Shown: in pieces, positions 35,242 to 41,770 of the stretch
Numbering within the stretch: the first letter of the stretch is position 1
Layout: each line of letters opens with the position of its first letter
Source of the DNA: a virus
Virus record (IMG/VR): IMGVR_UViG_3300046485_000028
Coordinates: 1 to 41,770 of that record
Length of the DNA stretch: 41,770 nt
Direction: 5' to 3' (one strand)
The notes under the pieces: model-generated
Told to the model about the DNA's origin: nothing
What the model saw: only the letters and a program-made list of their open reading frames with translations
Database searches by the model: none
Position numbers and translations under genes: made by a program

Positions 35242-35844
35242 TTACAGCAAGTCGTCTTCTTCGTCAGCCGCTGGCATGGCGGCTTCGTACGCGGCGATGG
35301 CGGCTGCGTAGTCGTCTTCTTCCATTTCGCTGGGCTTACCCAACTTCTTGGACAGCTTCACGAACGCGGGTTTGTCCGCTTCGATGAGCGCCTTAGCCGC
35401 TTCCATCACGTCTTCCAGTGTGGGTCCCTTGGCTTTCTTAGCTGCGGGCTTGCCTTTGCCCTTGGCTGGCGCTGGGGCTTCTTCTGGTTCGCTTTCCTTG
35501 AGTTCGTTTACCTTGTCAACGAGTTCTTGGTATTGGCTTTCGTCGACGTCGGCCAGCTTGCCCGCGCCAACGCTAGCCAGTGCGCTCACCATCACCTCTT
35601 TGCCTCGCAGTTCGACCAGCTCACGCAGGGCGTCGCGTACGTCGTCTTCGGTCAGTTCACTCTCCTCCGCCTTCGGCTTACCTTTGGCGGGGGCGGCGGT
35701 GCGACTTCCGCGTACAGGTTTCGCAGTCTTTCCATCTGGTGCGCTATGCTCGTCACCGCTGCCTCCTGATGAAAAGGTGGCGGACAGTGCCTCGCACGCC
35801 TCCGCGATGGTGGAGAAGAGCTCCGCGATTTTCTTGTGGTTCAT
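35242..35844 (-). CDS. Hypothetical acidic protein with two internal repeats and a DDLL tail
   Basis: 200 aa. Two similar helical units, each preceded by a PAKGKP-type linker. Ends EEDDLL, like the SSB. Confidence 0.6.
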   Translation of the reverse strand: MNHKKIAELFSTIAEACEALSATFSSGGSGDEHSAPDGKTAKPVRGSRTAAPAKGKPKAEESELTEDDVRDALRELVELRGKEVMVSALASVGAGKLADVDESQYQELVDKVNELKESEPEEAPAPAKGKGKPAAKKAKGPTLEDVMEAAKALIEADKPAFVKLSKKLGKPSEMEEDDYAAAIAAYEAAMPAADEEDDLL

Positions 35845-36029
35845 ACTATTTCCTTCATGGTGTTACCCGCCAAATACCGGGCGGGCTGCGGTTTATCAAT
35901 TATCAACTGTCTAGTGATAAGACGTGGTGGAGTACCCCTTCCCACACTGCCTGCGGGTGAGGTCGTAGTGACTGCCCCCCGTAATCTCGGCTACTCGTTT
36001 CGGTGTGGGCTTGGTCCGGAAGAAATACT

Positions 36030-36606
36030 GGGTATCCGGATTTAGGTGTGTGTAACAACATTGGGACGCGGTTTCATAAAAGTCATCCAATGTGTAAAAC
36101 CCTTGCGCCCGGTTGGATGACCGAAGAGCGGTTGGACTGGTGTTAGCGCCAGGACTTCTTTAATCTTTACCTGATCCTCGGCCCACTTGAATATCAAAAC
36201 ACCATCGCTGGCCAGCACGCGGAAGCACTCAGAAAATCCCAGTCGCAAGTCTTCACGCCAGTCATCCCCCAACACCCCATATTTGGCCCGCAACCAGCTC
36301 TTTCCCCCAGCGTGGCGTAGGTGAGGAGGATCAAAGACAACAAGCTTGTATGACTCATCTGGAAACGGAAGAGCCCGAAAATCCATAAGCATGTCCGGCT
36401 CAATTTTCAAGGTTCGGCCATCACAAAGCGTGTGCTGCTCATGGCGTTTATCGCCAAAAAATGCATCCGGGTTCTGCTTGTCAAACCACATCATTCGACT
36501 CCCGCAGCAAGGGTCAAGCACTCTTTTTTCGTCTAATTCAAAGCTCATTTTTTTCATCCCTAAAACGGATTTCGTTGTGGGTAAACACACTCAAATCCGG
36601 ATACCC
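36030..36606. mobile_element. 577-bp MITE-like cassette carrying only the methyltransferase gene (TIRs plus 8-bp target-site duplication)
   Basis: Left end is GGGTATCCGGATTT AG GTGTGT (36030..). Right end is ACACAC TC AAATCCGGATACCC (..36606). That gives a 14/14 core plus 6 more matching bases in inverted orientation. GAAATACT lies directly outside both ends in direct orientation (36022-29 and 36607-14). The interior is lower in G+C. Confidence 0.6.
36042..36557 (-). CDS. DNA methyltransferase (N6-adenine or N4-cytosine type)
   Basis: About 171 aa. Motif I VLDPCCGS and motif IV VVFDPPHL. Start at the ATG at 36557 or 36548 (the track GTG at 36590 is unlikely). The stop codon lies inside the left inverted repeat. 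Confidence 0.75.
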   Translation of the reverse strand: MKKMSFELDEKRVLDPCCGSRMMWFDKQNPDAFFGDKRHEQHTLCDGRTLKIEPDMLMDFRALPFPDESYKLVVFDPPHLRHAGGKSWLRAKYGVLGDDWREDLRLGFSECFRVLASDGVLIFKWAEDQVKIKEVLALTPVQPLFGHPTGRKGFTHWMTFMKPRPNVVTHT

Positions 36607-36704
36607 GAAATACTTAGTAACCCTCCTGGACCCACGGGTGCCCCAGTCATGGTCTATTGACAGTACCCCCACCCCTAACTCGCTGGGTTTCTTGGCAGCG
36701 GTGC

Positions 36705-37616
36705 TCACAGCAACTCCGCGACTTCTTTGGACACCTTCTTGCTGGCGCGTTTAAGCGCTTTCAGGGGGGTGTCCTCTAGGGTAGGCTCGGGGGTGTGCTT
36801 ACCGTTCTTTGTGGGCGTGATTAGCCCGATTTCTAGGGCGATGCTGTTAGCCTCAGGCCAGATCATGCGCAGGAACGTTTCCTTTTCATCTGCCATGAGC
36901 GCCTTGAACGACTCAGACAGCTTCTGCACTTGCGTATCCTTTGGCCTGCGCTCGCTGTGCGCTGCCTTCTTGCCCACCACGGGCACCAGCTTGTCGTCAC
37001 CTACTTTCAACTCTTCGTACTCCTCATCTTCGTCGCTACCGTTGGTATCGGCTGGCGTGCCACCCAGCGCGAATACACTGTTGGCACCCAGCGGGGTATT
37101 GTCCACCTTCACGCGCATAAGGCCAGCGTCTTCCAGCTCTTCGCGCAACATGCCACGGGTAAAGTCACTGTCGGTTTCGATGCGCTTTATCAACTTGGCG
37201 TTCTTACTTACCATGGCTTTCAGCACGAGGTTCACAACTTCGTTGCTGATACCCAGCTTGCGGCACACGTCACGCTGCGTAAGGTTATGAATGGTGTGCA
37301 ACCGTGCGCCCACTAGCGCCCGTTGAAGTGAACCCAGCTTGCGACGCAGCACGTTGATGGAGGCGATGTAGCCTGCGGGGTCCTTGCCCTTGTACGTAAT
37401 TTCTTCCCAACGAGTGCCCGTGCGGTGCCCTGCACGGTAGCGGTGCCAGCCATCCAGCACCTTGCCTTCGTACATGGTAACGGGCATGAGGATGCCACGC
37501 TGTTCAACGTCTTCGCAAAACGCTGTGAATTCCTGCTCATCCATGCCTCCGGGCATCAGCGCGACAGCGACTGGGTGTTGCGTATATGTGGGGAGTTCTA
37601 GGGCAATGTTAGCCAT
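36705..37616 (-). CDS. ParB-like nuclease domain protein
   Basis: 303 aa from the ATG at 37616. Contains KVLDGWHRYRAGH (ParB/Srx-type DGxHR motif) and an HTH-like QRDVCRKLGISNEVV. The track start at 37814 would add an implausible N-terminus. Confidence 0.7.
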   Translation of the reverse strand: MANIALELPTYTQHPVAVALMPGGMDEQEFTAFCEDVEQRGILMPVTMYEGKVLDGWHRYRAGHRTGTRWEEITYKGKDPAGYIASINVLRRKLGSLQRALVGARLHTIHNLTQRDVCRKLGISNEVVNLVLKAMVSKNAKLIKRIETDSDFTRGMLREELEDAGLMRVKVDNTPLGANSVFALGGTPADTNGSDEDEEYEELKVGDDKLVPVVGKKAAHSERRPKDTQVQKLSESFKALMADEKETFLRMIWPEANSIALEIGLITPTKNGKHTPEPTLEDTPLKALKRASKKVSKEVAELL

Positions 37617-41643: not shown

Positions 41644-41770
41644 TCCAGTGTGGTTCCGGAACCGCTCAGTTGTGTGTGTGGTTCCAGTACACCCCCTTTA
41701 TGGGGTACTGGCACCACTCAACATATTCCCAAAATAGAAGTGGAACCACTCGAAGAAGTACGTGCTGGTC
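41644..41770. repeat. Terminal exact direct repeat, copy 2 (identical to 1..127)
   Basis: Same comparison as copy 1; the window ends exactly at the end of the repeat. Confidence 0.97.

Follow-up and report, generated by a model that had tools for sequence, protein, structure and literature searches.

A probable mobile insertion cassette with ISL3-type ends and an orphan methyltransferase gene in phage genomes

The window analyzed here is the whole stretch of 41,770 nucleotides (nt) recorded as IMG/VR virus IMGVR_UViG_3300046485_000028, and its segment 36030-36606 is very probably a mobile insertion cassette (MIC) with ends of the ISL3 family of insertion sequences (IS) and without a transposase of its own. 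The cassette holds one gene, for a small methyltransferase, and appears to be a vehicle that spreads this probable anti-restriction gene between phages. A first-pass annotation, made from the letters of the window alone, had proposed a non-autonomous transposable element with an orphan methyltransferase, and the proposal is now supported by further copies of the unit, by its ISL3 ends and by relatives that lack the gene. The parts of the cassette are as follows.

36030..36606, gene on the minus strand: the whole cassette of 577 bp, ISL3-type ends and one methyltransferase gene.
36022..36029: left copy of the target-site duplication, GAAATACT, abutting the element end.
36607..36614: right copy of the target-site duplication, GAAATACT, abutting the element end.
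36030..36060, plus strand: terminal inverted repeat, GGGTATCCGGATTTAGGTGTGTGTAACAACA, at the gene's 3' end (repeat search).
36576..36606, minus strand: terminal inverted repeat, GGGTATCCGGATTTGAGTGTGTTTACCCACA as read on the minus strand, at the gene's 5' end.
36549..36599, minus strand: subterminal IS-derived leader (repeat search and sequence reading).
36042..36548, minus strand: methyltransferase gene, 168 amino acids (aa) and a stop codon (PHROG 954; motifs LDPCCGS and FDPPH).

Direct reading of the sequence gave GGGTATCCGGATTTAGGTGTGTGT at 36030-36053 and ACACACTCAAATCCGGATACCC at 36585-36606, with GGGTATCCGGATTT beginning at 36030 and its reverse complement finishing at 36606. These inverted repeats had been recognized before; a repeat search extended them to 31 nt (arms 84% complementary, 515 nt between them), and the repeat ends form a perfect 14-nt terminal core. 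The identical octamers claimed to abut both ends were confirmed at 36022-36029 and 36607-36614. Inside the 5' end, the repeat core recurs in inverted form within the leader (CGGATTT...AAATCCG, arms 36566-36579 and 36586-36599), which also has a ribosome-binding site, AGGGA, at 36557-36561.

Such an arrangement is rarely expected by chance. The 14-mer core has just two sites in 41.8 kb with up to two mismatches permitted (0.09 expected), and the octamer GAAATACT likewise occurs only twice in the window (0.49 expected). Over 100 first-order Markov resamplings, the mean number of perfect inverted repeats (14 nt or longer, 200-3000 bp apart) was 0.69 per window, and identical flanking octamers beside such repeats were seen in none of the 100 resampled windows; the probability of two octamers matching is 1.8e-5. 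The octamer is 75% A+T, while octamers with at least six A or T make up 5.9% of those in the window, and the GAAATACT pair has the form of the 8-bp AT-rich duplication typical of ISL3. As for base composition, the cassette has 49.4% G+C, compared with 57.8% in the 1-kb flanks and 57.3% in the whole window; the low G+C content noticed in the first-pass annotation is therefore real, but the contrast is smaller than its hand counts implied. The methyltransferase is the only sizeable open reading frame (ORF) lying wholly inside 36030-36606, where it takes up 507 of the 577 bp (88%), and the ORF list contains no transposase there, as had been claimed. The unit is thus a passenger gene without an internal transposase.

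The identity of the ends was found in bacteria. Termini of the form GGGTATCCGGATTT..GTGTG bound many bacterial elements with an ISL3 transposase and also MITEs (miniature inverted-repeat transposable elements) of ~338 bp, and at least 120 bacterial genome stretches contained the motif GGGTATCCGGATTTNNGTGTG, in many cases at the end of a contig. Hosts among the matches listed are mainly Lysobacteraceae, Burkholderiales and Rhodocyclales, and it is in such genomes that the search for a cognate transposase, suggested earlier, recovered an ISL3 family with matching ends. Among the listed loci, paired ends define elements of 0.34-6.6 kb, with sizes of about 338 bp, 683 bp, 1.6 kb and 2.3-3.8 kb and a common 4.5-4.6 kb form that has a mercury-resistance operon aboard. 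Perfect 8-bp duplications, all of them AT-rich, flank 16 of these elements, and the mean A+T content of the duplications is 82% (18 sites, counting the window and the cassette copy in contig L124 described below). The large ORFs of the paired-end elements matched the Pfam families DDE_Tnp_ISL3, Zn_ribbon_ISL3 and HTH_Tnp_ISL3 and NCBIfam transpos_ISL3 (293-298 bits, cut-off 180), a confirmation run on the representatives L018 and L025, and the annotation of RefSeq plasmids concurs with the ISL3 call.

The repeats of the cassette match these transposase-bearing elements directly: the first 24 nt of its 5'-end repeat are identical to ends of elements in L042, L095 and L099. Its closest relative among the matches listed is the end of a transposase-less cassette in L023, which is identical at 41 of 50 positions, the subterminal ACGAAATCCG included. 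Judged from termini that read GGGTATCCGGATTT, the ends would belong to the ISPst2/ISPpu12-like group of ISL3. The repeats of ISPst2 are GGGTATCCGGAATTTCTGGTTGAT and GGGTATACGGATTTAATGGTTGAT, beginning GGGTATCCGGAATTT... and GGGTATACGGATTT..., and this ISL3 element carries two passenger genes and is flanked by the 8-bp duplications TTTTTAAA and CAAAAAAG (PMC6305408); insertion of ISPpu12 likewise yields 8-bp duplications (PMC3735179). The repeat sequence was not found as exact text in papers. With the ISL3 elements in hand, earlier ideas of the motif as a tRNA-derived attachment core, a cos or pac site or an operator were dropped.

Single ISL3-type ends were also seen in two IMG/VR contigs (L001:11789-11850 and L002:61-127), and behind each of them comes a palindrome that is set between promoter-like hexamers and looks like a MerR-type operator. 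The L001 end is solo, with no second end in its 13.7-kb locus, and lies just upstream of a terminase-small-subunit-like gene; the L002 element extends past the contig start.

Non-autonomous relatives with the same ends exist in this group. MITEs of ~338 bp were found at L031:2559-2897, L064:2792-3129, L120:5049-5386 and L121:5050-5384, flanked by a perfect 8-bp duplication in L031, by one matching at 7 of 8 positions in L064 and by poorer flank matches in L120 and L121. A cassette of 2346 bp without a transposase (L023:194-2539) has a perfect duplication, ATATGAAC; its cargo consists of a NotI-family endonuclease and a D12-class adenine methylase. A segment of IncP-1-type plasmids is 95% identical to the interior of this cassette (positions 92-2285) but not to its ends. 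Since the MITEs and the transposase-less L023 cassette share their ends and have duplications, mobilization in trans within this ISL3 group is plausible. Among further cargo-bearing sisters, L095:1-4234 holds a PstI-like restriction-modification pair plus a transposase, and L018:781-3134 and L084:5179-7533 carry nucleotidyltransferase/HEPN or HepT pairs.

Several side observations concern the same group. The plasmids that match the L023 interior belong to Burkholderia, Variovorax and Achromobacter, and L044:1720-2402 is a 683-bp element whose single 105-aa ORF gave no Pfam match. Passenger genes are nearly always present in the autonomous ISL3 elements with these ends, which were also noted in L024, L025, L030, L033, L034, L073, L091 and L118. 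The 4.5-4.6 kb mercury-resistance form recurs in many Lysobacteraceae and Burkholderiales genomes.

The search for further copies of the cassette, called for in the first-pass annotation, succeeded as well. Copies were traced from a protein search, which gave two clusters at 95% identity, and the loci of the members were then examined. L124, L125 and L221 each hold a collinear copy of 576-577 bp that is 91-94% identical from one repeat to the other; these are three further insertion sites with differing flanks in phage or phage-like contigs. The L124 copy has a perfect 8-bp duplication of its own, TTTACTTT, and the L221 copy lies directly upstream of tail terminator and major tail genes. L125, L126, L217 and L218 hold a single insertion that recurs in four samples, and the phage concerned has genes for a tail fibre, an endolysin, an HNH protein and a lipase; the insertion of the window is also present in a second sample (L212). 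The same unit therefore stands in four genomic contexts, and these fall in different modules: the replication module in the window, upstream of tail genes in L221, and beside lysis and tail-fibre genes in L217. Conservation among all four copies extends to the leader.

All four insertions are oriented like the genes upstream of them, and upstream of the ORF the promoter scan gave no site that lies within the cassette. The shared orientation with the surrounding genes suggests that the gene is probably transcribed by read-through. In the L124 copy, a symmetric substitution was observed in both repeats (L124:211-224 and 773-786, GGGTATCCAGATTT and AAATCTGGATACCC), by which CCGG became CCAG on one arm and CTGG on the other. 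This paired change could reflect adaptation to a different transposase or homogenization of the ends during transposition.

These comparisons bear on the idea that the repeats serve the phage as a regulatory or structural feature, for example an operator pair or a hairpin, on both sides of an ordinary phage methyltransferase gene, and that the octamer is a coincidence. A palindrome in the repeat core, ATCCGGAT, could be a protein-binding site, and the motif does occur as single copies in the IMG/VR contigs L001 and L002. Yet in many bacteria these termini delimit ISL3-transposase elements and MITEs that have 8-bp duplications, the cassette is found elsewhere between other flanks and with another duplication, no such repeats accompany relatives of the gene at 85% identity or below, the structure was never reproduced by the resamplings, and Rfam gave zero matches over 35700-36900. 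We consider a regulatory origin already refuted by the comparative data, and it is hardly credible. Two independent MITE insertions on either side of a gene were rejected too, as there is one repeat per side and the duplication brackets the whole unit.

Where, then, did the cargo come from? The closest repeat-free gene (L219/L220) is 85% identical to the cassette gene in nucleotides and about 93% in protein. It is translationally coupled in a phage operon, with an HNH endonuclease gene just upstream and small ORFs followed by a Holliday-junction resolvase gene downstream. Homology between the two extends from about 5 nt before the ATG to codon ~161, and the leader of the cassette copies is not homologous to the sequence at the L219 gene. 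From these breakpoints it follows that the leader, the last eight codons (RPNVVTHT) and the stop are IS-end sequence. The C-terminal tail encoded by the left repeat is missing in all relatives without repeats; those relatives sit in phage-type operons, and no repeats were found around relatives of 75% identity or less (80 metagenome loci) or around the 83-85% relatives L207-L209. The cassette is thus a phage gene captured between two ISL3 ends. No methyltransferase gene was detected by tblastn in the at least 120 repeat-carrying bacterial loci, so that no autonomous parent carrying this gene was found there.

The ratio of nonsynonymous to synonymous substitution (dN/dS) between cassette copies was 0.04-0.09 at a dS of 0.26-0.44, which points to strong purifying selection on the gene and to a protein whose function has been retained despite considerable divergence. 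Because 507 of its 577 bp are an ORF under such selection, we filed the unit as a MIC and not as a MITE; the coding content does not fit the non-coding character of that class.

In the ORF list the longest reading frame of the methyltransferase is 36042..36590 on the minus strand. We placed the likely true start at the second ATG, at 36548, because the A-run of the L124 copy is one base shorter and throws the first ATG out of frame; AGGGA stands 8 nt upstream of this second ATG. Of the earlier description, a methyltransferase of about 171 aa as the only gene, the single sizeable ORF therefore stands, while the start has moved and the product has 168 aa. The stop codon, 36044-36042, does fall within the left repeat as stated, and that repeat encodes the final eight codons, RPNVVTHT, and the stop.

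The product matched PHROG 954 ("DNA methyltransferase") with E = 4.6e-76, and its homologues number more than 7900, most of them from metagenomes and prophage-like contexts. Neither motif I (LDPCCGS) nor motif IV (FDPPH) varies among 40 homologues; they agree with the S-adenosylmethionine-binding motif I and the catalytic motif IV, (D/N/S)PP(Y/F/W/H), of amino DNA methyltransferases, and the protein would be typical of amino-methyltransferases in both. One might ask whether this methyltransferase-like protein itself catalyzes the movement, which would make the element autonomous, a possibility raised for repeat-flanked restriction-modification units by Furuta et al. (PMC2853133). It is indeed the sole gene of the cassette. 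It is, however, an ordinary member of a very large and mostly repeat-free family, it has methyltransferase motifs and no nuclease or DDE signature, and the ends come from a family with a dedicated DDE transposase, so self-movement is extremely improbable.

The cassette lies in a genome that is probably complete. The first and last 127 bases of the window are identical (1-127 and 41644-41770), a sign that the assembly represents a complete phage genome of ~41.6 kb, either circular or terminally redundant, and the genome encodes terminase, portal, a J-like tail protein, DNA polymerase A, helicase, thymidylate synthase and primase-helicase. The insertion is in the minus-strand replication module, between a ParB-like gene and a gene for a 200-aa protein, beyond which follow a DUF2800/PD-(D/E)XK gene, a gene for a single-stranded DNA-binding protein and the polymerase gene; these neighbours bear out the assignment to a phage early region. 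The features around the cassette are as follows.

36705..37616, minus strand: upstream neighbour, ParB-like protein, 303 aa (PHROG ParB-like matches).
35242..35844, minus strand: downstream neighbour, 200-aa protein without assigned function (ORF list and PHROG).
36615..36708, minus strand: 5' part of a small split phage ORF, whose start overlaps the ParB-like stop.
35911..36021, minus strand: 3' part of the same split ORF (direct sequence reading).

ORF 36538..36708 runs across the junction into the repeat, and ORF 35911..36090 resumes in frame after excision; removing the cassette and one octamer in silico rebuilds an ORF of 70 aa. The reconstructed empty-site junction reads ...GGTTACTAAGTATTTCTTCCGGACC.... 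As a side observation, the reconstructed target (36615-36650 joined to 36021-35990) can fold into a 55-nt hairpin, GGTCCAGGAGG...TTCCGGACC, of -17.3 kcal/mol, with the duplicated octamer in its loop region.

The nearest phages, L216 and L213/L214, have ParB-like proteins 84-85% identical to that of the window, and neither has a methyltransferase gene at this position. A repeat-free gene in the same place in related phages, which would have spoken against transposition, was thus not seen. In L216 the orthologue of the 200-aa gene comes no more than 67 nt after the ParB stop (L216:1244-1312), and in L213/L214 an unrelated 106-aa ORF occupies the gap (L213:4918-5238). These closest relatives also differ from the window across the surrounding ~200 bp. 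A search of INPHARED with the 2.8-kb region returned a distant parB segment as its sole match.

The slot after the ParB-like gene is variable: empty in L216, filled by the 106-aa ORF in L213 and by the split 70-aa orphan ORF in the window, and in both of the latter the ATG of the slot ORF overlaps the ParB stop. The leader of the 200-aa gene (about 35850-35915), GTTGATAATTGATAAACCG.AGCCCGCCCGG..GGCGGG, is conserved in the window, L213 and L216. On the minus strand it contains a GC-rich hairpin (GTTGATAATTGATAAACCGCAGCCCGCCCGGTATTTGGCGGGTAAC), and it probably serves the early operon as a promoter, operator or RNA structure.

This setting raises the question of whether a genuine ISL3 cassette came in by recombination, inside a larger segment from a cassette-bearing phage. 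The closest relatives have nothing that corresponds to the ~200 bp around the cassette (36615-36704 and 35925-36021), no homologue of the split 70-aa ORF is recorded, and the slot is a swap site for small genes, where the whole ~790-bp segment could have entered together. On the other hand, the flanking 200 bp have the G+C content of the phage, unlike the cassette, and the perfect duplication shows that transposition took place in exactly this flanking sequence. Import would also merely shift the event to an unseen donor and leave the nature of the element unchanged. We regard it as quite unlikely.

A second question is whether the cassette still moves. It might instead be a fossil, once mobile and now a fixed methyltransferase gene whose repeats survive as coding and leader sequence. 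The dS of 0.26-0.44 means that the known insertions are not recent copies of each other, the duplications have decayed at two sites, and selection on the protein tail could preserve the left repeat, since the last codons and the stop fall within it. Three databases gave no cassette copy either: scans of IMG/VR for the 5' leader, the 3' end and the L125-type flank gave no match, INPHARED held only distant methyltransferase genes of 65-68% identity, and PLSDB plasmids gave zero matches. Against this, the 8-bp duplication and the 14-nt cores of the window are perfect, which speaks for a fairly recent event there; the symmetric change in L124 suggests that the ends have been kept matched, and four sites in different phages require repeated mobilization. 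A fossil is, in our judgment, rather unlikely.

Some findings weigh against a mobile cassette as we describe it, or at least against parts of its history. The rebuilt 70-aa ORF had no homologue in 5.8 billion proteins, the only match being the truncated product of the window itself. The search for an allele of the empty site with a single GAAATACT, which the first-pass annotation had set as a check, found none, and patterns of the reconstructed empty site, junction and window flanks had no match in IMG/VR. Duplications are imperfect at two of the four insertion sites: the L221 flanks CAAATTTG and CAATTTTT agree at 6 of 8 positions, and the insertion of the L125 group has no clean duplication. 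Among the recovered elements there is no transposase-bearing one with the exact subterminal ACGAAATCCG (+32-41), which occurs in just one other of them, the transposase-less L023 cassette, and none of the recovered ends matches the other cassette end (…TTTAGGTGTGTGT) exactly. Bacterial copies of the cassette may also exist beyond the at least 120 listed stretches.

Further points of this kind concern the substrate. The methyltransferase had no Pfam match above the cut-off, no NCBIfam match and no sequence relative in PDB. Its AlphaFold model is moderate (pLDDT 67), Foldseek found nothing below E = 0.07 with this model, and the weak fold matches are mixed (PrmA, N6AMT1/HemK2, RsmD-like proteins and M.BceJIV), covering protein, rRNA and DNA methyltransferases. 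Given weak, mixed matches and a moderate model, structure gives no conclusion on the substrate; that DNA would be methylated, and that this would counter restriction, is what we infer on good grounds.

Taken together, the favored reading of a MIC with ISL3 ends suggests the following course of events. Two IS ends are joined tightly to the gene: one provides a leader of ~58 nt with a ribosome-binding site at the 5' side of the gene, and the other the last eight codons and the stop at its 3' side. Both repeats could be recognized by the ISL3 transposase of a putative full-length element in the host cell, which would insert the cassette into an AT-rich octamer by staggered cuts 8 bp apart, repair then doubling GAAATACT. 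In the window the landing place would have been the variable slot of the replication module, where a small ORF was split. Transcription would occur by read-through and translation from the ribosome-binding site of the cassette. The enzyme probably methylates the phage DNA and so would shield it from host restriction enzymes, and this protection would explain why phages keep the element. A wider proposition, which we hold only tentatively and find slightly less probable than its opposite, is that of a phage-adapted cassette that moves between unrelated phages by means of the ISL3 transposases of infected hosts and spreads protection from restriction. If this is true, defence and counter-defence genes share one transposon chassis, as its bacterial sisters L023, L095, L018 and L084 would illustrate.

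Bacteriophages reportedly tolerate insertion sequences poorly and are described as poor shuttles for them (PMC3429520). The cassette would avoid this cost, as the transposase has been dropped, the size is 577 bp and the gene is probably useful to the phage. It is plausible that a transposase-free cassette with useful cargo forms an exception to the scarcity of IS in phages and a route for counter-defence that does not need homology; our data suggest that transposition in trans can move a likely anti-restriction gene between phages sharing no homology. The link to bacteria matters as well, since the same ends carry restriction-modification, toxin-antitoxin and mercury-resistance cargo there. 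For annotation, GGGTATCCGGATTT..GTGTG together with an 8-bp repeat offers a simple signature of cargo cassettes in phage and metagenome data.

Among known elements, ISPst2 (PMC6305408) and ISPpu12 (PMC3735179) resemble the cassette in repeats that begin GGGTATCCGGA(A/T)TT, in 8-bp AT-rich duplications and in carrying extra genes. They differ in being autonomous, with about 3-3.4 kb and a transposase of about 445-470 aa, whereas the cassette has 577 bp and no transposase, and the identity between cassette and ISPst2 repeats is limited past the first ~14 nt. Units in bacteria come close in another respect: in the work of Furuta, Abe and Kobayashi (2010), inverted repeats enclose restriction-modification units and orphan methylases, insertion was shown to have produced an 8-bp duplication in two cases, one of them in Xanthomonas oryzae, and a non-autonomous transposon was suggested (PMC2853133). 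Those units lie in bacterial chromosomes and their end family was not identified, while the present cassette is in a phage, has ISL3 ends and has the sisters L023 and L095. With bacterial MITEs the cassette shares its non-autonomous nature, IS-derived repeats and target-site duplication; MITEs are typically non-coding, and 88% of the cassette is a functional ORF under purifying selection.

In phages, the mycobacteriophage elements MPME1 and MPME2 are similar in that they have about 440 bp, short inverted repeats, a small ORF and varying sites. To our knowledge they have no link to a known IS transposase family, and they differ in end structure and lack a methyltransferase. Orphan DNA methyltransferases of phages that act against restriction are, like the cassette gene, small, stand-alone and located in the early or replication region. 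Their genes are normally fixed in operons, as seen in L208 and L219, but the cassette gene has transposition ends of its own.

The closest kind of known element is the MIC, defined for ISfinder/ISsaga annotation as IS ends around passenger genes without a transposase (PMC3129680) and exemplified by the qnrD and qnrS2 cassettes (PMC3913671, PMC5444012) and by the TnXax1-related MICs of Xanthomonas (PMC4337579). Like these, the present cassette has repeats of a known IS, a duplication, a passenger gene, no transposase, more than one location and presumed mobilization in trans. It is unlike them in its ISL3-type ends and in a cargo of one orphan DNA methyltransferase whose C-terminus is encoded by the repeat, and, in contrast to MICs on plasmids and chromosomes, all four cassette copies were found in phage or phage-like contigs. 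A literature search found no phage-borne ISL3 cassette with an orphan methyltransferase as cargo. Thus, the cassette is of a known kind, the MIC (PMC3129680), and appears to present a new combination: a lone orphan methyltransferase as cargo, a protein tail encoded by the repeat, four phage or phage-like sites and sisters that carry defence genes.

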